NCBI GenBank assembly: GCA_964596735.1
Contig: CAZQVF010000005.1
Coordinates: 13,328-77,327 of the forward strand
Direction of reading: 5' to 3'
DNA: 64,000 bases
From: an uncultured Gammaproteobacteria bacterium
GTDB taxonomy: Bacteria; Patescibacteriota; Patescibacteriia; UBA2591; UBA6264
Shown: piece after piece, positions 7,098 to 22,112 of the stretch
Position numbering within the stretch: the first letter of the stretch is position 1
How the letters are laid out: every line of letters begins with the position of its first letter
Made by a program: the position numbers and the translations under genes
Notes under the pieces: generated by a model
What the model was told of the DNA's origin: nothing
The model's input: only the letters and a program-made list of their open reading frames with translations
Databases searched by the model: none

Positions 7098-7484
7098 TTA
7101 TTTCTTAACTTTTTTAACTGCTGTTGGTTTTTTAGTACTAACGGCTGATTTTTTTTCTAAACCAATTGATAAAATCTTAATTTCAGTATATGGCTGACGA
7201 TGTCCTTGTGTTCGATGATAACGAGTTTTTGGTTTATATTTAATTATTTTAACTTTTTTTGCCCTGTCTTGAGCCAAGACCTCTGCTTCAACTTGAATTT
7301 TAAGGTGTGGCTTGCCAATTTCAACTTTTCTTTTTTTGTCATCAAAACATAAAAGAACTTCTTTGAAGGAAATCTTTTTTCCAACCTTTTCTTCGAGTTT
7401 TTCAATACGAAGAATATCTCCTTTTTTTACTAGATATTGCTTGCCTCCTGTTTTAATTACGGCGAATAAACTCATAATAAACAA
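7098..7484 (-). CDS. rplU: 50S ribosomal protein L21 (with basic C-terminal extension)
   Basis: ...FAVIKTGGKQYLVKKGD... L21 core. True start may be the internal Met (MSLFAV) at 7475. Confidence 0.9.
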   Translation of the reverse strand: MFIMSLFAVIKTGGKQYLVKKGDILRIEKLEEKVGKKISFKEVLLCFDDKKRKVEIGKPHLKIQVEAEVLAQDRAKKVKIIKYKPKTRYHRTQGHRQPYTEIKILSIGLEKKSAVSTKKPTAVKKVKK

Positions 7485-7537: not shown

Positions 7538-10279
7538 TTACAAATCTTGAGCTTTTTCTACTCTTACCCCTCCGCCTTTTTCTAAAATGACTATATCTCG
7601 TCGGCCAATTTTCTTGGTTAATAAAAGTTTAGCCAAAACATCACTGACTCGATTCTGGATTGCTCTTCTTAATGGCCGAGCTCCAAAAGCTGGATCAAAA
7701 CCAGCTTCTGCCAACTCTGTAACTGCTTCATCTGTTGCTTTTAAAGTAATTCCTTTTTCTTCAAGCTGTTTGGTTAATTTTCTCAAAAGCAATCTTGTAA
7801 TTTGTTTTATTTCTTCCATACCTAATGGCTTGAAAACAACTGTGCCGTCAAAACGATTTAAAAATTCCGGTCGAAAATACGGTCTTAATTTTTCTTGAAT
7901 TAAGGTTTCTGTAATCATTTCTACAGAAGTCCCTTTTGTGATTTCTTCTTGAATAAAATCTGTTCCTGCATTAGATGTACAAATTATTATCAGATTGGTA
8001 AAATCAATTGTTCTCCCAAGAGCATCTGTTAGACGACCATCATCCATTACCTGGAGAAACACATTTAAAATATCTGGGTGGGCCTTTTCAATTTCATCAA
8101 GAAGCAATAAAGAAGAGGGGTTTAACCGTACTGATTCGGTTAACAATCCTCCTTTTTCTCCTCCCGGGACTCCAATTAAACGGTTAATGCTTCCTTTTTC
8201 CTGATACTCACTCATATCTAACCTAATCATTCTATTTTCTTGTCCAAAATATACTTCAGTAACTGTTTTAGCCAATTCTGTTTTTCCCACCCCAGTTGGC
8301 CCTAGAAAAAGTAAATTAACAATTGGTTTTTTCTGGCTACGTAATTCTGTTCTTGCTCTTCTTAAAGCTGCAGCAACCATATTAACTGCTTCATTTTGAT
8401 CAATTAATCTCTTGTGTATTTGTTCTTCTAAATTTAAGAGTTTAGTCGATTCTTTTTCTGTAAGTTTGGTTACAGGAATTTTTGTCTTTTCAGCAACTAA
8501 AGCGGCTACGTCTTCTGCTTGAACAATGCTCTTTTTGCCTTTTCTATTTTTCACGGCAATAGCTACTTCTTTTAAAAGGTTAATTGCTTTATCTGGTAAA
8601 AATTGTTCGTGCAAATAGCGGGATGATAAATCAACCGCTTGATTTAAGGCGCCATAGGAAAAATAAACATGTTCACGAGCTTCAATTGGAGCTGCCTGAG
8701 CCTCTAAAATCTGAATGGTCGCATTTTCATCCGGCTCTTCAATCTTTACCTTTTGAAAAACCTCTCCCAAGGCTTTGGTTTCAATTAAACGACGGTATTC
8801 ATTGGGAATAGATGTTGCTAAAACTAAAAATAATCTTCTTTTCAAAATGCTAGATAAAATTTCTGAAACATCTAATTCTCCTTCAGTTGTACGAACTCCT
8901 ACCATGTTGTGAATATCTTTAATAACTAAAATGATATTTCCCGAACGAGCCACTTCACTAAGAATAATTTGTATTCTTTGTTCAATCTCACCTGATTGTG
9001 AAGCTCCGGCAATCAAACTCGCCAAACTTAAACTGACTAATCTTTTATCTTGAAAGATTTTAGGCACATCCTCTGTAACCATACGCCGAGCCAAACCATT
9101 AATAATAGTTGTCTTTCCTACTCCTGGTTGACCAACTAAAACTACTCCTGGCCGTCCTCCTTCAAGAACTCTAAAAATCTCTTTGACTTCTTTCTCTCTG
9201 TCCATACAGACACCTAAATATCCGCTACGAGCCATTTGAGTCAAATCCTCTCCATGAGCATCAAGATTGGGCGTGGCAATAGCCGTATAAGCCCTATTAA
9301 TTGGGCCCTTAGGTTTAAACCTAGCTTGCCCGGCAAAACTATGTGCCTGCTTGCTTAATTCTTGATAGACCTTAATCCAAAGGCAAACATTGGTTATCTC
9401 ATTTAGACCAACCTCTAAATCGTAAAAAATCTCTTTAACTGGTCCTTCAAAACTCATTAAGGCCTGTAGAATTTCTAAGGGGGAAAGCGAGGTGCTATTA
9501 CCCTCTCCAGCCAAGACATAAGCCCTTAAAAGGACCTTTTGTGTTTCTAGACTATAAGAAACATTTTTAAATGGGCCAGATTTATTAATCTTACCCAGAC
9601 CTCGAGCCACCTTGTCTTGTAGACTTTTCCAATTTAAGCCCAGTCGATTAATAACTAATTTGACATCTGAACCTTCTAAACAACTAGCAAGAATATGAAT
9701 TGGTTGAATCTGCTGATGTTTTAATTTACGAGCTAAAGCCCATGATTTTTGCATGACTTTAACTGAATCTTTAGAAAAAGCTTCTGCAACATCAATTTTA
9801 AACTTCTTGGAAAGGTGGTCTGTTTCTTCCCAATTTTCTGGAATCTGGACACTTTCTCTGATCGATTTTGGCCAATTCTTTTGTCTTTCGTCTTGCTCTT
9901 TTTCTAAGGTATAAAAAAGATAACAATCAGTTAATATTGAAAACCAAATGTATAAAAGCAACCTTTCTTGAGATATATTTAAATATGATATCTGATTTAA
10001 GATATTAATAATGAATTCGGGAACAACAACCTCGGGCAAATTTAAAACTATTTTAAATAAACAAATCAAACCCCAAACTCCAAACAAAATTAATAAAATC
10101 TTAATAATAACTTTTAAAAATCTCCCTAATCCATTGCTAATAATTTCGGCTCTGTTAAAAATTTTGTCTAAAAATAAGATATAACCACCAAACCAGGCAT
10201 AAATTTCCCGACCATTACAGGTAGGACACTTTTTTAAAGGGGTCTTTCCTTGGCAATTTGGACAAATAATAAAATTCAT
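7538..10279 (-). CDS. ClpC/ClpB-type double-AAA+ unfoldase with N-terminal zinc ribbon and TM anchor
   Basis: CPNC..CPTC zinc ribbon, hydrophobic helix ILLILFGVWGLICLFKIVL, Clp-N-like repeats. AAA1 is GQPGVGKTT; AAA2 is GPTGVGKTELAK with sensor region. Confidence 0.85.
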   Translation of the reverse strand: MNFIICPNCQGKTPLKKCPTCNGREIYAWFGGYILFLDKIFNRAEIISNGLGRFLKVIIKILLILFGVWGLICLFKIVLNLPEVVVPEFIINILNQISYLNISQERLLLYIWFSILTDCYLFYTLEKEQDERQKNWPKSIRESVQIPENWEETDHLSKKFKIDVAEAFSKDSVKVMQKSWALARKLKHQQIQPIHILASCLEGSDVKLVINRLGLNWKSLQDKVARGLGKINKSGPFKNVSYSLETQKVLLRAYVLAGEGNSTSLSPLEILQALMSFEGPVKEIFYDLEVGLNEITNVCLWIKVYQELSKQAHSFAGQARFKPKGPINRAYTAIATPNLDAHGEDLTQMARSGYLGVCMDREKEVKEIFRVLEGGRPGVVLVGQPGVGKTTIINGLARRMVTEDVPKIFQDKRLVSLSLASLIAGASQSGEIEQRIQIILSEVARSGNIILVIKDIHNMVGVRTTEGELDVSEILSSILKRRLFLVLATSIPNEYRRLIETKALGEVFQKVKIEEPDENATIQILEAQAAPIEAREHVYFSYGALNQAVDLSSRYLHEQFLPDKAINLLKEVAIAVKNRKGKKSIVQAEDVAALVAEKTKIPVTKLTEKESTKLLNLEEQIHKRLIDQNEAVNMVAAALRRARTELRSQKKPIVNLLFLGPTGVGKTELAKTVTEVYFGQENRMIRLDMSEYQEKGSINRLIGVPGGEKGGLLTESVRLNPSSLLLLDEIEKAHPDILNVFLQVMDDGRLTDALGRTIDFTNLIIICTSNAGTDFIQEEITKGTSVEMITETLIQEKLRPYFRPEFLNRFDGTVVFKPLGMEEIKQITRLLLRKLTKQLEEKGITLKATDEAVTELAEAGFDPAFGARPLRRAIQNRVSDVLAKLLLTKKIGRRDIVILEKGGGVRVEKAQDL

Positions 10280-15163: not shown

Positions 15164-15214
15164 TTTATAATTAAAATATTTTTTAATTTCAAGGTTCTGC
15201 GAAACAGGTTCTTA
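15164..15214 (-). promoter_or_regulatory. short copy of the conserved promoter-like element abutting the rbfA start
   Basis: Reverse complement reads AAGAACCTGtttcgCAGAACCTTGAAATTAAAAAATATTTTAATTATAAAaATG. Confidence 0.45.
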
Positions 15215-15775
15215 AAAACGAAAAAATTTAAAAGGCCTTTCTGTTAAATCAACTATAATTGATGGTTGACCAGTTAATCCCTCTCCTTTTAAGGCCAGAT
15301 TTACCTGTTGACTAAATTCTTTAGTTATCTTTTTTATACTCAAACTAGGTTGAAAGCCTGACATATTAGCGCTAGTTGTGGTTATTGGAAAATTCTTGCT
15401 TAATTGTTGACAAACCTCTGAATCAGGAATACGGACACCAATCGTTTTTTTACCCCCGGTCAAGATTTTAGACACTTTAGCTTTCTTTTTTAAAATAAAA
15501 GTAAAAGGCCCTGGCAAAAGGGCTGACATTAACTTTTCTTGTTCTTTATTAACCCGGGCCAAATCTTTAATTTCCTTTAAACTTGAAACTATTACAGACA
15601 AGGGTGCTTTAAACTCTCTACCTTTTATTCTAAAAACTTTTTGAATTGCCCCCTGATTAAAAATATCTGCTCCCAGACCGTATAGCGTGTCTGTGGGGTA
15701 AATAATTACTTCGCCTTGTTGCAAGGCCTTTCTTGCTTTTCTTATATTTATCTTAGTTGGTGAATAAACTAACAT
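15212..15775 (-). CDS. tsaC: L-threonylcarbamoyladenylate synthase (YrdC/TsaC)
   Basis: YPTDTLYGLGADIFNQGAIQKVFRIKGREFKAPLSV YrdC fold signature. Confidence 0.85.
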   Translation of the reverse strand: MLVYSPTKINIRKARKALQQGEVIIYPTDTLYGLGADIFNQGAIQKVFRIKGREFKAPLSVIVSSLKEIKDLARVNKEQEKLMSALLPGPFTFILKKKAKVSKILTGGKKTIGVRIPDSEVCQQLSKNFPITTTSANMSGFQPSLSIKKITKEFSQQVNLALKGEGLTGQPSIIVDLTERPFKFFRF

Positions 15776-16997: not shown

Positions 16998-17231
16998 TTA
17001 TTTAATATTTAATTTTTCCTTAAACTTTGGGACATCAAATCCCATAATCATTTCCCCGTCGATTTCTGTTACGGGTACGGCCATCTGCCCTGTTTTTTTA
17101 ATAAAATCATCAACCAGATCCTGATGTTGACTAAGATCAACCTCTTCAAACTCGATTTTATTCTCATTTAAAAAATCTTTGACATGGTGGCAATAAAGAC
17201 ATGATGGTGATGTATAAACAATTATTTTCAT
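16998..17231 (-). CDS. glutaredoxin-like protein (NrdH/Grx family)
   Basis: 77 aa; CLYC active site in a thioredoxin fold (IIVYTSPSCLYCHHVKDFL). Confidence 0.75.
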   Translation of the reverse strand: MKIIVYTSPSCLYCHHVKDFLNENKIEFEEVDLSQHQDLVDDFIKKTGQMAVPVTEIDGEMIMGFDVPKFKEKLNIK

Positions 17232-17256
17232 ATATTCTTAGTTAATTGGTTATTTA

Positions 17257-17334
17257 CTGTTAGTATAAGAACCTGCTTCGCAGAACCTTGAAATTAAATT
17301 CTATTATATATAAATTAAGGTAATTTAATTATAA
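17257..17334 (+). repeat. conserved promoter-like element, copy 2 (tandem with copy 3), facing the 3' end of the DGR RT gene
   Basis: AAGAACCTGcttcgCAGAACCTTGAAATTAAATTCTATTATATATAAATTAAGGTAATTTAATTATAA, near-identical to the aspS copy. Confidence 0.5.
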
Positions 17335-17410
17335 GAACCTGCTTCGCAGAACCTACCTGCCGGCAGGCAGGCCTTGAAATTAAATTCTATTGTATAAATA
17401 ATAATGTATT
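17333..17410 (+). repeat. conserved promoter-like element, copy 3, carrying a 20-nt GC-rich palindromic insertion
   Basis: ...CAGAACC[tacCTGCCGGCAGGcaggcc]TTGAAATTAAATTCTATTGTATAAA...ATTATAAA. The perfect 12-bp palindrome is at 17346-17357. Confidence 0.5.
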
Positions 17411-17464
17411 TTAATTATAAAGATTAGAAAAAGCTCGTCAAGTTATCTTATTTTGTAATAATAT

Positions 17465-18442
17465 TTATTCTACTAAACCTACTTTCTTTCTAAATTTATA
17501 CGTATTTCCGTGAATCAATAGTCCTTGATAAGAAATAACTGTCTGTCGTTTTGGATAATTCTTTAATCTTCTAATTATCTTTCGCTTTGTGGTTGTTCGA
17601 ATCTGTCGATAGCATGGAAAATGTATCCAGCCCAAAAAATCTAAACCCGAAGCATAAGTTCTAATACAAACCTTGTGTTGATGAAGTGTCAATTTAAGTT
17701 CTTTTTGTAAAAATTCAGTGATTCTTAACAATAAACCATTGAGATACTCTTTATTGTCCGATAAAATAACGAAATCGTCGCCATATCTAATATAATATTT
17801 CACTCGCAATTCCTGTTTTATATACATATCAAATTCGTGCATATAAACATTAACGAAAAGTTGGGAAGTGAGGTTGCCAAGGGGCAGACCTATCCCCAAA
17901 CGGCTGGAATAAAAACTAAAAACTACCCTTTCAATCAACCGAATAATTTGAGAATCGTTAATGTGTCTCTTTAATATTTTAATAAGGATTTGCTGATCAA
18001 TGTTAGCAAAAAATTTCTGAATATCGCATTTTAGAATATAACAAGTTTGAGAATTATTTTTTGATACCTTCTGGGCAAAATATCTGAATCTGTTCAAAGC
18101 GCGATGCACTCCCTTGTTTTCTCTACACGAATATACATCATAAATAAACTTTCTATCAAAATAAGGACACAGCTCCTTATAAATGAGATGATGTAATAAC
18201 CGATCACGCACCGTAGCTTTGTGAATATTTCTCGGCTTGGGGTCAGAAATATTAAAAGCCGAATATGGTCCGTGAATATAAGTAAAATTAACCAGAGACT
18301 TATAAAGATCTATTAAATTATCGGCCAGCTTTATTTGAAAAATCATCACATCTTTTTTATGTCTTTTACCACACAAAAAACGCTCCCAAGTCGCTAAGAG
18401 ATTTTCTATCTTAATAATATCAATATATTTAACTTTAAACAT
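17465..18442 (-). CDS. DGR reverse transcriptase
   Basis: RT motifs: IENLLATWERFLCGKRHKKDV N-terminus, LPLGNLTSQLFVNVYM (DGR-specific SQ motif), YIRYGDDFVIL (YxDD). ORF track starts at 18511; start at MFKVKY (18442) abuts the divergent avd ATG (CATATG). Confidence 0.9.
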   Translation of the reverse strand: MFKVKYIDIIKIENLLATWERFLCGKRHKKDVMIFQIKLADNLIDLYKSLVNFTYIHGPYSAFNISDPKPRNIHKATVRDRLLHHLIYKELCPYFDRKFIYDVYSCRENKGVHRALNRFRYFAQKVSKNNSQTCYILKCDIQKFFANIDQQILIKILKRHINDSQIIRLIERVVFSFYSSRLGIGLPLGNLTSQLFVNVYMHEFDMYIKQELRVKYYIRYGDDFVILSDNKEYLNGLLLRITEFLQKELKLTLHQHKVCIRTYASGLDFLGWIHFPCYRQIRTTTKRKIIRRLKNYPKRQTVISYQGLLIHGNTYKFRKKVGLVE

Positions 18443-18820
18443 ATGACTACAATATCTGCGCGAGTACCATTGGTGCTTGTTAGAACAAAAAGGGCTTATC
18501 AAATTTGGCACAAAAATTTAGTCAATCTTAATCGACTTGATCGCTATACTATTGGTGCTAAAATCGATGAATATTTTCTATCTTTATTGGAATTAATTTT
18601 TAAGGCCTGTTTTGCTTACGATAAATTTGAAAAACTCTCAATGGTATCACAAGCGATTGGTAAAAACGATTTATTAAAATTCTTTTTACAGATTGGTTGG
18701 GAACAAAAAACCATTAACCATAAAAATTATGGTCTTCTAATACTTTTACTTGATGAAGTTGGTCGAATGCTGGGTGGCTGGAAAAAAAATATACAAGAAA
18801 AAACTCCCGCTAGTAAGTAG
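18443..18820 (+). CDS. avd: Avd-like accessory variability determinant (four-helix-bundle / IVS family), divergent from RT
   Basis: 125 aa, basic. C-terminus LLDEVGRMLGGWKKN resembles the Bordetella phage Avd C-terminus (AEVGRILGSWI), with the helical pattern of the 23S-IVS family. Confidence 0.6.
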   Translation: MTTISARVPLVLVRTKRAYQIWHKNLVNLNRLDRYTIGAKIDEYFLSLLELIFKACFAYDKFEKLSMVSQAIGKNDLLKFFLQIGWEQKTINHKNYGLLILLLDEVGRMLGGWKKNIQEKTPASK

Positions 18821-18840
18821 CAGGAGAAAAAATTAAATAA

Positions 18841-18960
18841 GTCACAGAAGCAGAGCAGGCAGTCGTTATCATCCCAAGCGTTCTCAAAGTTGCCGAGGTT
18901 GAAATTAAAGTCATCATCCGAGTTGCGGTTGACATTCGGCACGCGGTAGTTGCCGTCAGA
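18841..18960 (-). repeat. DGR template repeat (TR)
   Basis: Minus-strand sense translates ...SDGNYRVPNVNRNSDDDFNFNLGNFENAWDDNDCLLCFCD, rich in AAC/AAT codons. Not part of a real gene. The GC-rich end CGACTGCCTGCTCTGCTTCTG is shared with the VR (IMH-like), with one non-A mismatch. Confidence 0.85.
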
Positions 18961-19194
18961 CAATGTACAGCCCGCCACCTTTTTCACTAAGGGTAACGCC
19001 AGTCGCCCTCTGTATTTTATTCTGAGCCAAAATGCTCAATAGCACGCTGCACCGACTGATTTAATTTTTTCATAAAAGGTTGCACTCATTTACTAAGCAT
19101 GCCCAGTAAATTCCTGGCAAACTCCCTTTACGAGAATTCGATGATATAAAGCCATGGCCACATATCCAATCTATTATCCAAAAATATTATACAG

Positions 19195-19238
19195 AAAAAA
19201 TACATAAAAGAAAAGGGTCCTTACATTGGTAAGAACCC
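19195..19238 (-). terminator. hairpin + U-tract downstream of the DGR target gene (terminator; possible DGR homing hairpin)
   Basis: Minus sense GGGUUCUUAC-CAAU-GUAAGGACCC forms a 10-bp stem with one G-U, followed by UUUUCUUUUAUGUAUUUUUU. Confidence 0.55.
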
Positions 19239-19289
19239 AAAGGGTCAAAAAATCCAAAGAACAGGACTAAGAAACCAAGTGCCTAAGCA

Positions 19290-19997
19290 CTAATCGCAGT
19301 CGCAGAAGCAGAGCAGGCAGTCGCTATCATCCCAAGCGTCCTCAAAGGGGCCGAGGAAGAAAATAAAGTCACCAACCGAGTAGCGGTCGACAGACGGCAC
19401 GCGGTAGCTGCCGTCAGAATCGATCCAGAGAGCCTCTTTCTCATCAAACGAGACAGACCAACGGCTCTTTGGCAACTTGTTTTTGGCAAGTTCATAGACC
19501 AGTGAAGCGCCTTGAGCGCCGGCTAAAACAGCTTTCTGAGAATACAGGAAATTTAAACAGTCTTCCGAAGTCACAGTTTCTGTGATATTAAAAACCTTTA
19601 CCTTGAACTTTCTGCCAGGCACGAGCTTTGTTGTCGCTTTGTTAAAGTGCTTATCAGTGATGTCGGAATTGTAGTAATTAAATTCCGAGCCATGCGCTGC
19701 TGCAAAGTCAGTCAAGCGCGTAGCATGGTCGTAACCCTTAGGCACAACAATGTTAAACGCATTGGCCAATTTGAAGCGCGGGTCAGGCATAAACGGTGAA
19801 AGAGCTTGCTGACGTTGTTTCTGTGTCAGATTTAAAAAACATTCATATTCTGGCAAACTCATTTGCCCTTTCTTGATCTTCTGATTGCAATCCATATGCA
19901 GACCAGCCAATTTGGCCGCTTCTGCGCCGATAGATGTCTTATCCATCATTTTCTCCTTTGATACCAAGAGTTTAATAATTGACCCCATGCCAATCAT
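19290..19997 (-). CDS. DGR target protein with C-terminal variable region
   Basis: C-terminal 40 aa (GSYRVPSVDRYSVGDFIFFLGPFEDAWDDSDCLLCFCD) are encoded by the VR. N-terminal portion has no recognised domain; start codon uncertain (several in-frame Met). Confidence 0.75.
   Translation of the reverse strand: MIGMGSIIKLLVSKEKMMDKTSIGAEAAKLAGLHMDCNQKIKKGQMSLPEYECFLNLTQKQRQQALSPFMPDPRFKLANAFNIVVPKGYDHATRLTDFAAAHGSEFNYYNSDITDKHFNKATTKLVPGRKFKVKVFNITETVTSEDCLNFLYSQKAVLAGAQGASLVYELAKNKLPKSRWSVSFDEKEALWIDSDGSYRVPSVDRYSVGDFIFFLGPFEDAWDDSDCLLCFCDCD
19299..19418 (-). repeat. DGR variable repeat (VR) at the 3' end of the target gene
   Basis: Differences from the TR occur only where the TR has A on the sense strand (AAC to AGC, GAC, TAC, TTC, CCC; GAT to GTT, GGT). 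Confidence 0.85.
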
Positions 19998-20095
19998 TTT
20001 CTCAGTATTGATAATATTATGTCATATTTTAGCCTTTTTGTCAACACTCCTATTCCAAAAGACTTAAAATTTATATTAATCTAAAATAAAAACAC

Positions 20096-20125
20096 CGCCG
20101 AGGAGAATCGAACTCCTGAGACGGA
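20096..20125 (-). pseudogene. tRNA 3'-half fragment (canonical T-arm + acceptor 3' strand, no 5' half)
   Basis: Minus sense AGGAG-TTCGATT-CTCCT then CGGCGGTG; no matching 5' acceptor strand within 80 nt. The 14-nt core CCGAGGAGAAT(C/T)GA is directly repeated at 20181-20194. Confidence 0.4.
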
Positions 20126-20201
20126 TTTGCCTTTAGCGGAAAACCTGGCGTCCTACAATGCTTAATAAATTAAAATGGCCCCGAGGAGAATTGAGTGAAA
20201 A

Positions 20202-20890
20202 TTATTTTAATCCACTTTGTAATTTTAACGCGTCAATCCATCCTTTAATTCGAAAAGCTATCTTACGACCATGTACACGTAAATCAAGTGTGCCATATGG
20301 CAAAGAATTGATTGGACGTTTTCTGTTGCTCGCTTTGCTTATTTGTTTAAAAATGCGAAAACGACTTTTAGGAATATTAGTTACTCTAGCCCAAAAATTA
20401 ATGGCAGATTGCTCGCTAATATTAGCATGTATTCTAACACATACTTTTAATTTCTCTTCAGGGACTTTAATAATTTCTCGTAAAAAGCGAAGAAACAACG
20501 CAATCATATAAGGATCAGCATTAACAAAATCAACTACATACCCTTTGTTTTTTTGAGCCTCAATTTTATATCCCTCTGCCCAATAAAGAGCATTTGCAAC
20601 TAATAATAACTCATATTTTGACAACGAATGAATTTCATTAAAAGTCTCCTTCTTTATTCTCTGATTTTCAATCCAAATAGCACGTGTCCGTTGCCGATTG
20701 TTTTCAAATAACCCATGTTCTCGAGCAATTCTCGTTTTTTTTTCTAAAAGCTTTTTTGCTGACTTTGTTAGTTTTAAGTCTCTAAACCAAACGCTAAGCG
20801 AGCCCTTGGAAACACTTAAAGTACGAGCTATTTCATTGTAACTTTTACCCTTTAACCGCAACCTGAGCGCTTTTTGATATTGTGGATGCA
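20202..20890 (-). CDS. hypothetical HTH-domain protein with LAGLIDADG-like motif (possible homing-endonuclease-like protein)
   Basis: HTH segment KGKSYNEIARTLSVSKGSLSVWF; motif LLLVANALYWAEGYKIEAQK...VDFVNADPYMIALFLRFL resembles degenerate LAGLIDADG. ORF track start (20954) overlaps tRNA-Glu, so ATG at 20890 (MHPQYQ) is used. Confidence 0.35.
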
Positions 20891-20908
20891 TAATAATTAA
20901 ATATATAA

Positions 20909-20980
20909 GTAGCGCCAAGGGGAATCGAACCCCTGTTACATGGTTGAAAACCATGTGTCCTGACCACTAGACGATGGCGC
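20909..20980 (-). tRNA. tRNA-Glu (UUC)
   Basis: GGCGCCA acceptor stem (G1-U72), anticodon stem CATGG/CCATG with loop TTTTCAA (anticodon TTC), T-arm GGGGTTCGATTCCCC. Confidence 0.85.
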
Positions 20981-21019
20981 CATTATTATTTAGCGCAATC
21001 TTAGCAAAATTAAACGAAT

Positions 21020-21047
21020 TTGTCAAAGAATTAATTTATGTTAAAAT
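21020..21047 (+). promoter_or_regulatory. sigma70-like promoter for tsaD (TTGTCA-N16-TAAAAT); -10 ends 6 nt before the ATG
   Basis: TTGTCA 21020-21025, TAAAAT 21042-21047, ATG at 21054. Identical geometry to the ruvA promoter. Confidence 0.45.
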
Positions 21048-21053
21048 AATCTT

Positions 21054-22112
21054 ATGCTTATCTTAGGTATTGAAACATCTTGTGATGAAACAGCGGCGGC
21101 TGTTTTAGAATATAAGCCCTTAAAAAAAGAAGGTCAGTTTAAAGTTATTTCCAATGTTATTTTTTCACAAATCTCAATTCATCGTCAATACGGAGGTATT
21201 ATTCCTGAGGTAGCCGCCAGGGCTCATATTGAAAATATTTTACCAGTGATTAAAAAATCTCTTAAAAATATAGATTATAGAAAAATCGATTTAATTGCTG
21301 TTACTCAAGGGCCGGGGCTAATCACATCGTTATTAGTTGGTTTAGAAACTGCTAAATCTTTATCCTATTCTTGGAAAAAACCATTAATGGGAATTAATCA
21401 TTTACAAGGTCATTTGGCGGCTAATTTTATTGAACATGAAACAAAGAATGTTTTTCCGGCAATTAGCTTAATTGTCTCTGGTGGACATACTGAACTTGGC
21501 TTAATGAGAAAGTCTGGTCATTATAAAAAAATTGGACAAACTAGGGATGATGCCGCTGGAGAATGTTTTGATAAAATCGCTAAATTATTAAAAATCGGCT
21601 ATCCTGGAGGTCCAGTTATCTCTAAAATGGCTGAAAAAATAAACAACAAATCAAATAATATCTGCTTTCCTCGCCCCATGATCAAAACAAATGATTTTGA
21701 TTTTAGTTTCTCGGGACTAAAAACAGCTGTACTTTATTTTGTTAAAAAGAATAGAAATAAACTAGAAAAGAAAAAATTTATTCAGAACATTTGTGCTGAA
21801 TCTCAACAAGCAATTATTGACGTTTTAATTCATAAAACAATTAAAGCAAGTAAAAAATATAAAGCCAAAGCTATTTTTCTAAGTGGTGGAGTGGCCGCCA
21901 ACCAAGAACTAAGAGAACAATTGAAGCTCCATGTTTGTAGATTGCCAAATAGTGTAAAATTCTTTGTTCCATCAAGAAATCTTTGCACTGATAATGCGGT
22001 AATGATTGCTGCAGCCGCCGCCCTCAAATTCAAAAACTTAATACCAATTCAAAGGAAGAAATTAAAAAATAATTGGCAAAAAATAAAAGTAGATCCTAAC
22101 TTAGAAACATGA
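21054..22112 (+). CDS. tsaD: tRNA N6-adenosine threonylcarbamoyltransferase
   Basis: MLILGIETSCDETAAAV...GPGLITSL...GINHLQGH Kae1/TsaD signature. Confidence 0.9.
   Translation: MLILGIETSCDETAAAVLEYKPLKKEGQFKVISNVIFSQISIHRQYGGIIPEVAARAHIENILPVIKKSLKNIDYRKIDLIAVTQGPGLITSLLVGLETAKSLSYSWKKPLMGINHLQGHLAANFIEHETKNVFPAISLIVSGGHTELGLMRKSGHYKKIGQTRDDAAGECFDKIAKLLKIGYPGGPVISKMAEKINNKSNNICFPRPMIKTNDFDFSFSGLKTAVLYFVKKNRNKLEKKKFIQNICAESQQAIIDVLIHKTIKASKKYKAKAIFLSGGVAANQELREQLKLHVCRLPNSVKFFVPSRNLCTDNAVMIAAAAALKFKNLIPIQRKKLKNNWQKIKVDPNLET

Follow-up and report, generated by a model that had tools for sequence, protein, structure and literature searches.

Integrase-mediated genomic islands are reported to sit in tRNA genes, at positions said to fall into the sublocation classes set out by Williams in 2002. 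Some free-standing homing endonuclease genes come with a replacement copy of their target gene's end; reported cases are a GIY-YIG gene in Allomyces atp6, credited to Paquin et al. in 1994, and, as a second example, SegB in the tRNA gene cluster of phage T4, credited to Brok-Volchanskaya et al. in 2008. Diversity-generating retroelements (DGRs) have their prototype in Bordetella phage BPP-1. We compared with these systems a locus in a 64-kb stretch of DNA (here called the window) from a population of Patescibacteria (candidate phyla radiation [CPR]), whose genes recur identically on Joint Genome Institute (JGI) contig Ga0117906_1000004 and on other contigs. In the window, the interval between the glutaredoxin gene grx and tsaD is ~3.8 kb long, compared to ~270 bases in the closest relatives. 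It contains tandem promoter-like repeats, a DGR, remnants of tRNA-Glu genes and an intact tRNA-Glu gene beside an open reading frame (ORF) for a helix-turn-helix (HTH)/LAGLIDADG-like protein. An initial annotation had named these parts, with tsaD as the next plus-strand gene, and all of them were confirmed. It had also read the stretch as a single island; we consider it likely that the interval is instead a composite of three independent insertions, namely, the repeat pair, the DGR cassette, and a tRNA-Glu/ORF module.

The locus resembles tRNA-associated islands in that the tRNA gene at its edge is intact, displaced tRNA 3' fragments recur as direct repeats, the insert is absent from relatives, and the tRNA locus has been reused. 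It departs from them in that the interval has no integrase, the tRNA fragment does not bound the DGR, and a whole tRNA gene has been replaced rather than its 3' end. The "island" that runs from the tRNA gene to its relic, moreover, is a single 0.7-kb ORF.

The likeness to the atp6 and SegB elements is of another kind. An endonuclease-like ORF lies directly 3' of an essential gene with a displaced piece of 3' pseudogene downstream, and its presence is patchy among close relatives while its genomic site is fixed. Unlike those elements, the target here is a bacterial chromosomal tRNA-Glu gene, and the nuclease activity is putative. In the protein, an HTH is joined to one divergent LAGLIDADG-like domain, which goes unrecognized by current Pfam LAGLIDADG models, and the ORF, which follows the tRNA by 1 to 37 nucleotides (nt), has no room for a promoter of its own.

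Gains between grx and tsaD

Relatives of the locus were found through tsaD in public genomes and through the HD-domain gene beside grx in metagenome contigs, and the proteins of the window were mapped onto every locus (coded L001 to L120; identities are those of proteins unless stated otherwise). The conserved flanks are grx on the left (16998 to 17231, minus strand; Pfam PF00462, E = 2.5e-16), which is 84 to 91% identical in L008, L011, and L013, and tsaD on the right (21054 to 22112, plus strand; PF00814, E = 7e-92). The closest relative, L011, is 95% identical in the HD protein, 93% in valS, and 90% in tsaD, and reads grx, 125 bp, tRNA-Glu, and then tsaD. Its whole interval measures 266 bp and lacks the DGR, the HTH ORF, and the promoter-like repeats. 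L015 and L063 keep grx, tRNA-Glu, and tsaD in the same order within 243 and 207 bp. With the three genes held within 207 to 266 bp in these relatives, the proposal of the initial annotation that the stretch is an insertion was upheld. In L008 (tsaD, 91%), one repeat unit, an ORF of 99 amino acids (aa), and a split tRNA 3' fragment lie between grx and tRNA-Glu, and in L013/L014 the tRNA-Glu gene is 60 nt from grx, and an ORF of 537 aa separates the tRNA gene from tsaD. The DGR and the HTH ORF were absent from the same site in all of these loci (L008, L011, L013/L014, L015, and L063), both where the site is empty (L011, L015, and L063) and where it holds different cargo (L008 and L013).

The junctions were located by aligning L011 to the window. 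The alignment runs up to 17268, where it ends at TATAA; it resumes from 17395 to ~17466, and then from ~20997 into tsaD. The middle segment spans a shared TTGACG −35 element and ends at the stop codon of the DGR reverse transcriptase (RT). The last segment runs through a tsaD promoter-like site (TTGTCA-16-TAAAAT, 21020 to 21047, plus strand), which is conserved in all relatives and lies in a block, GAATTTGTCAAAGAATTAATTTATGTTAAAATAA, that is identical in the window and L011. Relative to these loci, the window has gained three inserts, and its resident tRNA-Glu gene has been disrupted and functionally replaced.

The leftmost insert is a dispersed intergenic repeat, GAACC...TTGAAATTAAATTCTATT...TTATAA, present as two tandem units (17269 to 17420, plus strand) and recognized by pairwise alignment and in relatives. 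On the plus strand, the units bear putative promoter matches, TTGAAA-17-TAAATT/AATAAT. Unit 1 (17269 to 17334) is 66 nt long and unit 2 (17335 to 17420) is 86 nt long, including a 20-nt palindromic insert; outside the insert, the two agree at 70 of 80 positions. Where the window has these units, L011 passes directly from TATAA to AGATTAG. Close strains carry zero to two copies at different intergenic sites: L011 has none, L008 has one (7159 to 7262), and L013/L014 have a tandem pair in the gap that separates grx from the HD gene (5211 to 5358 in L013), in the opposite orientation relative to the genes. A partial copy also lies upstream of rbfA in the window (15193 to 15216, minus strand). The units end in a grx promoter-like site, TTGACG-16-TATAAT (17414 to 17441, minus strand), which matches the promoter motif at 11 of 12 positions. 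Its TTGACG element is kept in both L011 and L008, and L011 reads TTGACG-17-TATACT. The repeat pair is thus inserted inside the −10 of the grx promoter-like site, and the end of the repeat supplies a new putative −10.

Toward the other end of the interval, the resident tRNA-Glu gene was recovered as a pseudogene (20093 to 20155, minus strand) by alignment to L011. It matches the functional L011 tRNA-Glu in two blocks: one that begins at the discriminator base and extends across the T arm is identical throughout (26 of 26 nt), as is a second (17 of 17 nt) that comprises the anticodon loop with the 5' strand of its stem and the 3' strand of the D stem. Positions 1 to ~21 are missing, and between the two matching blocks 10 nt (the 3' strand of the anticodon stem and the variable region) are replaced by 20 unrelated nt. 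The pseudogene also matches L008, L013, L015, and L063. Neither ARAGORN nor Rfam called it, and folding of the tRNA-fragment region gave no convincing structured RNA (z-score, −0.6). The initial annotation had noted a tRNA fragment at 20096 to 20125; the fragment is real, but it is longer than was described, includes an anticodon loop and a D-stem strand, and belongs to the resident pseudogene. Because the resident downstream flank, TTAATCTAAA-ATAAAAA (20076 to 20092), still adjoins it, the resident gene is 5' truncated, dead, and still at its original place. This position matters for the history of the interval: since the pseudo-tRNA lies between the DGR and the HTH ORF module, at least two separate events must have taken place.

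Three steps would account for the present arrangement. A tandem repeat from the dispersed intergenic family would have entered the −10 element of grx and rebuilt the promoter. A self-contained DGR cassette, made up of the target promoter, the target gene with its variable repeat (VR), a spacer, the template repeat (TR), avd, and RT, would have entered beside grx as the second step. Lastly, a module composed of tRNA-Glu, the ORF, and an older 3' relic would have taken the place of the 5' third of the resident tRNA-Glu and provided a functional gene in its stead.

The DGR cassette

The DGR RT (325 aa; 17465 to 18442, minus strand; RVT_1, E = 2e-21) has thousands of homologues in Patescibacteria, the closest of which is 85% identical. 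These closest homologues are Patescibacteria RTs that lie beside bAvd genes and TR/VR pairs, which places the window's RT in the DGR lineage. The bAvd accessory gene (18443 to 18820, plus strand; PF22296, E = 2.7e-12, 47.5 bits against a cut-off of 40) is divergent from RT with no spacer, its ATG (18443, plus strand) abutting that of RT (18442, minus strand). The same layout occurs in L103 to L105 (1727 to 1732 in L103). Given that the start codons abut, the avd promoter must, as far as the sequence can tell, lie inside the RT gene and the RT promoter inside the avd gene.

The rest of the cassette is on the minus strand. A repeat search found the TR at 18840 to 18960, and comparison with L103 delimited a conserved noncoding spacer of 329 nt between the target gene and the TR (18961 to 19289), which contains a terminator-like hairpin of the target gene (19238 to 19215), a promoter-like site (19168 to 19141), and one arm of an inverted repeat. 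The target gene (19290 to 19997), taken from the ORF list and the repeat search, carries the VR at its C-terminus. Its likely start is the ATG at 19949 or 19946, just after a Shine-Dalgarno sequence, AAGGAG, which gives a product of ~220 aa. The VR (19298 to 19418) ends 8 nt before the target stop codon, and a hairpin that is kept in L103 lies directly 3' of it (19291 to 19278). Upstream of the gene is a promoter-like site, TTGACA-17-CATAAT (20016 to 20044; 11 of 12 motif matches), which forms the right functional end of the cassette. An 18-nt inverted repeat (18826 to 18843 and 19054 to 19071, 94% complementary) brackets the TR, and a terminator-like hairpin follows directly after it (18826 to 18804, minus strand). 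The stretch from the target terminator to the TR is visibly well conserved with L103 despite target proteins that are only 40% identical. These features (the conserved stretch, the bracketing inverted repeat, and the hairpin after the TR) leave room for the TR to be made as a discrete structured RNA, which may be ~300 nt long.

The presence of a DGR was confirmed by the RT, bAvd, and TR/VR pair, and variation in the VR adds that it is at work. TR and VR form a 121-nt repeat with 88% identity, and all 14 core differences between them fall at TR adenines. Contigs from other samples that agree in their other genes differ in the VR at 22 columns, of which 21 are at TR adenines. Because the TR/VR differences are adenine specific and the VR varies between otherwise identical contigs, we concluded that the DGR is genuine, is currently active in the population, and diversifies the C-terminus of the target protein. 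The VR of the window differs from that of the long JGI contig of the same population (L001/L108) and matches a variant found in L109 and L112, and at least four VR variants coexist across samples.

The window's DGR is a new member of a known Patescibacteria DGR clade, "DGR clade 2" of Roux et al. (bioRxiv 10.1101/2020.04.01.020958). It shares with known DGRs an RT of the DGR type, bAvd, adenine-specific TR/VR differences with ongoing mutagenic homing, and a C-terminal VR in a small target followed by a 3' hairpin. It differs from classical DGRs in its divergent avd with start codons that abut those of RT, and from the classical co-oriented avd-TR-RT order in that its TR is flanked by the target gene and the 3' end of avd. 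Unlike elements of the BPP-1 type, the cassette is chromosomal, with no phage or mobile-element context. It can also be dated as a strain-specific gain, with both junctions mapped to within ~30 nt. The DGR part of the interval is ordinary for the phylum, except for this unusually clean pair of empty and filled sites.

The initial annotation had taken the stretch as a whole to be compositionally distinct, which holds for only part of it. The genome mean G+C is 0.334, and within the 64 kb the only 700-bp scanning windows with G+C of at least 0.42 are those that start at 18701 to 19351. Atypical G+C is confined to ~18700 to 20050, that is, to the TR (0.50), spacer (0.39), VR (0.58), and target gene (0.46). 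RT (0.316), avd (0.32), the HTH ORF (0.34), and the promoter-like repeats (0.27) are host-like, so that no island-wide atypical composition was found by these windows over the 64 kb. Since the L103 cassette, with an 85% identical RT, repeats the contrast (target, 0.58; RT, 0.33), the G+C-rich patch characterizes the target/TR half in this DGR cassette family and does not mark a foreign island. In A+T-rich genomes, DGR target genes that are rich in G+C are accordingly not to be taken as island signatures.

The cassette extends for ~2.6 kb, from the target promoter to the RT stop codon (~17465 to 20045/20075). Its left edge lies within a few bases of the RT stop codon (17465 to 17467), which coincides with the junction to L011-like DNA, and its right edge is no more than 30 nt from the −35 of the target promoter (20044 to 20039). 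DNA homology with the L103 cassette (RT, 85%; Avd, 80%; target protein, 40%) reaches 20029. Cassettes with RTs 85%, 75%, and 74% identical to that of the window have the same layout, and their neighbors are adk/map, ftsW/holB, and pilB-like genes; no tRNA gene lies near any of them. More distant DGRs occupy still other positions in relatives. In L009 (519 to 5623; tsaD, 70%), a DGR with a 43% identical RT and an Avd sits between tsaD and tsaE, two genes that overlap in the window.

We found no terminal inverted repeats at the ends of the cassette, no clear target-site duplication around it, and no mobility gene within it. The cassette would have landed in a spacer of ~65 nt between the tRNA-Glu terminator and the grx promoter, most likely by illegitimate or microhomology-mediated recombination, and could later have spread between close strains by homologous recombination through the conserved flanks. 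The empty site of L011 and the filled site of the window form a clean before/after pair for a minimal active cassette, and arrival with neither integrase nor phage nor tRNA att site narrows the mechanisms by which chromosomal DGRs move in Patescibacteria.

The tRNA-Glu gene and its linked ORF

The tRNA/ORF module extends from 20156 to ~20996 and consists of a 20-nt joint, a tRNA fragment that we call fragA, the ORF, and a complete tRNA-Glu gene. The intact tRNA-Glu(UUC) (20909 to 20981, minus strand; called by ARAGORN and by Rfam with 68.6 bits) is not of the resident type. It differs from the gene of the relatives in the acceptor, anticodon, and T stems, with an acceptor stem of GGCGCCA/TGGCGCT against GCCGCCG/CGGCGGT in the resident type. 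Because all three stems differ, it is a whole gene of another type rather than a hybrid. FragA (20176 to 20194, minus strand; repeat family D2) runs from the T-loop to the acceptor 3' end of yet a different tRNA-Glu. Its acceptor 3' strand, CGGGGCC, is closest to the L015/L063 type, CGGGGCT, and it matches L063 at 19 of 20 nt. FragA begins 8 nt past the ORF stop codon; an equivalent relic lies at the same +8 offset in L094, and further tRNA 3' relics follow the ORF in L118 and L120. The Rfam scan of 16.5 to 21.5 kb (E ≤ 10) returned the intact tRNA only, with no group I intron, riboswitch, or fragment match.

The ORF between these two tRNA sequences (20202 to 20891, minus strand) encodes 229 aa, with an HTH at the N-terminus, a long helix, and a single LAGLIDADG-like domain. 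The domain bears the motif LLVANALYWAEG, in which E106 and G107 are invariant in the family. Across 38 sequences the motif reads LLxxALYWxEG with L97, L102, W104, E106, and G107 invariant, so that the motif helix ends, as in LAGLIDADG proteins, in an acidic residue followed by Gly. No LAGLIDADG match was returned for the 38 members by Pfam, by a PDB profile search, or by Foldseek against the PDB; Pfam and the profile search gave the HTH only. NCBIfam and PHROGs scans likewise produced only weak HTH or transposase-HTH matches for the 229-aa protein, as they did for the DGR target protein and the 99-aa ORF of L008.

The family has at least 210 members with 42 to 67% identity, all of which come from Patescibacteria-type sources and bear the annotation hypothetical or HTH protein. 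In all six of the further lineages examined as DNA, the ORF starts 1 to 37 nt after a tRNA-Glu(ttc) gene. Upstream of the tRNA in these lineages there is usually a divergent tsaD or valS, and the downstream neighbors vary. A homologue in L077 (30% identical) is located between tRNA-Phe and tRNA-Gly. The linkage is also visible in over-long gene calls: in 17 of 21, a tRNA has been translated in frame as an N-terminal extension that stops just short of the first Met of the family. Examples are ..RT..FQ..N.GS[I/T/N]P.. and GFDS, which derive from the anticodon loop TTTTCA and the T arm GGTTCGATTCC. The 250-aa ORF call of the window (20202 to 20954) is another such overextension into the tRNA. In the window itself the tRNA-Glu ends 17 nt before the ATG of the ORF, and in the window, L091, L094, L099, and L118 alike the ORF begins 1 to 17 nt past the tRNA 3' end; a Shine-Dalgarno sequence is lacking, and so is the space for a promoter. 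The lack of room for a promoter implies that the ORF is cotranscribed with the tRNA, and its mRNA would possibly be leaderless after tRNA 3' processing.

That the ORF directly follows tRNA-Glu in the lineages examined suggests that the family is a tRNA-Glu-linked element of the homing type; it has a fixed site, a patchy presence, and relics of its target gene, and the putative LAGLIDADG-like fold and the invariant E106 count on the same side. We tentatively propose, at somewhat less than even odds, that the family (225 aa) is a free-standing homing element of Patescibacteria that acts on tRNA-Glu and carries a resistant copy of the tRNA or of its 3' end. The ORF would then depend on the tRNA promoter and leave relics behind, and the pseudo-tRNA of the window would be a fresh footprint. 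In the same reading, the 2.6-kb DGR cassette would separately be an insertion unit of its own, bounded by the target promoter and the RT stop codon and lacking a mobility gene. For the replacement of the resident gene, a homing-type event is the most likely mechanism: the ORF product would cut tRNA-Glu genes that lack the ORF, and repair of the double-strand break would copy the ORF and co-convert the adjacent gene to the resistant tRNA-Glu. Because the resident remnant starts in the D stem, one side of the repair may have been nonhomologous. In the few cases compared, position 7:66 looked like A:T in ORF-linked tRNA-Glu genes against G:C in ORF-free ones, and a difference of this sort could indicate where the protein recognizes its site. 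Such homing would explain the fixed site, the patchy distribution, the traveling fragA, and the fresh pseudo-tRNA.

In literature searches, we met with no account of a LAGLIDADG-like gene linked to tRNA-Glu in Patescibacteria. A survey of tRNA introns (PMC13011429) describes HNH endonucleases that reside in introns of tRNA-Asn; for LAGLIDADG endonucleases in rRNA introns, it refers to a different study. The tRNA-Glu-linked family is a more novel lead than the DGR. If its product is a homing enzyme, it would represent a new kind of selfish element in reduced genomes, one that rewrites an essential single-copy tRNA gene, and it would account for the stray tRNA-Glu fragments and over-long gene calls in many Patescibacteria assemblies.

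Alternative histories and the setting of the interval

The single-island reading of the initial annotation held that repeats, DGR, and ORF were acquired together and integrated at tRNA-Glu through att-like repeats, severing the tsaD promoter. It would fit the absence of the whole of 17.27 to 20.99 kb from L011, the intact tRNA at one end with tRNA 3' fragments inside, and the G+C-rich patch, yet it is very improbable. The resident pseudo-tRNA, with its own downstream flank, TTAATCTAAA..., stands in the middle of the stretch rather than at its end. No tRNA fragment is found at the grx-side junction near 17466; the relics lie instead between the ORF and the DGR. No integrase or recombinase domain was detected among RT, Avd, the target protein, and the HTH ORF with Pfam or, for the last two, with NCBIfam or PHROGs, related DGR cassettes are never beside a tRNA gene, and RT and avd are host-like in G+C. 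The 14-nt direct repeat that had been offered as the att sequence is present where described (20098 to 20111 and 20181 to 20194), with a third copy within the intact tRNA-Glu. Its copies are the 3' ends of three tRNA-Glu types of different origin, namely, the resident (CGGCGGT), the L015/L063-like relic (CGGGGCC), and the incoming gene (TGGCGCT), and are not att sites. Nor are the promoter-like repeats a promoter cut off from tsaD: they occur at other loci and are not beside tsaD in the insertion-free L011, L015, and L063, and tsaD keeps its own conserved promoter-like site.

A history of loss fares only a little better and is still quite unlikely. In this scenario, two tRNA-Glu genes with the ORF between them and the DGR were ancestral, L011, L008, L013, L015, and L063 deleted this material, and the second tRNA decayed in the window. 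In its favor, distant Patescibacteria share the order tsaD (or valS), tRNA-Glu, ORF; no ORF homologue is closer than 67% identity, which means that no recent donor has been sampled; and genome reduction is common in Patescibacteria. Against this stand the independent losses required in at least five relatives (72 to 95% identity), all of which have a clean tRNA-Glu of the resident or L015 type. Recombination between the two tRNA genes would have left a mismatched acceptor (GGCGCCA with CGGCGGT), whereas the L011 stem, GCCGCCG/CGGCGGT, is perfectly paired. FragA, moreover, comes from a third tRNA-Glu type, and DGR cassettes are at different loci in other relatives. For the ORF alone, it is conceivable, though rather unlikely, that the protein is a domesticated WhiA-like DNA-binding factor cotranscribed with tRNA-Glu and that the fragments are decayed local duplications. 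WhiA, a Gram-positive transcription factor that joins degenerate LAGLIDADG domains to an HTH, has lost the catalytic acidic residues. It has two LAGLIDADG domains and a C-terminal HTH, unlike the window family, which has an N-terminal HTH, one domain, and, at E106, an invariant motif glutamate. The patchy distribution among close relatives, the relics that start in the T-loop at a fixed +8 offset in two distant lineages (with more in L118 and L120), and the replacement and pseudogenization of the resident tRNA-Glu in the window also speak against domestication.

Several observations weigh against three independent insertions as well. We found no intermediate strain with the DGR and without the ORF module, or the reverse; in a search for such intermediates with the exact Avd, 21 of 21 contigs showed the full arrangement or broke inside the DGR. 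The position of the pseudo-tRNA is the only evidence for the order and independence of the DGR and tRNA/ORF events. The synteny of the ORF family with tsaD or valS across distant Patescibacteria would also suit an old, vertically inherited gene. The resident remnant begins in the D stem and the other relics in the T-loop, which is not what a simple homing model predicts. Finally, the flanks of the cassette share only an ambiguous, degenerate 11-nt similarity (ATTCTACTAAA at 17467 to 17477 compared with TTAATCTAAA at ~20075 to 20085).

Two further readings of the promoter-like repeats were considered and rejected. A match to the decayed 5' end of the P-loop kinase gene that follows RT in L103 scored 38, compared to 28 ± 4.4 (maximum, 41) for shuffled sequences, and an apparent extension of DGR homology into the repeats (permissive blastn, 17323 to 17464 against L103) was a low-complexity artifact. 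Folding of the repeat region gave a z-score of −2.0 and no convincing structured RNA, and the Rfam scan had no match on the repeats.

The grx-tsaD interval is a hotspot for strain-specific insertions with variable cargo. The 537-aa ORF between tRNA-Glu and tsaD in L013 (3235 to 4848) is membrane-like, and in L017 (5 to 268 and 570 to 848) an 87-aa GIY-YIG-like ORF lies just upstream of tRNA-Glu. L017 and L008 (7410 to 7709) have in common a 92- to 99-aa ORF that lies between tRNA-Glu and grx (37% identical); it probably represents earlier cargo of the slot in which the DGR now sits. In L008, which has no HTH ORF, the tRNA-Glu T arm and acceptor 3' strand are present again (7745 to 7810), 50 nt downstream of the intact gene. 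This second copy is split in the T-loop by a 39-nt insert of two G+C-rich hairpins, and it may be the footprint of a lost element. In the window, an rpmH-rnpA-yidD-yidC cluster lies ~5 kb to the left of the locus and dnaA ~7 kb to the right, and a local minimum of the cumulative GC skew falls near 20.8 kb. Given these neighbors and the skew minimum, the insertion hotspot may be close to the replication origin.

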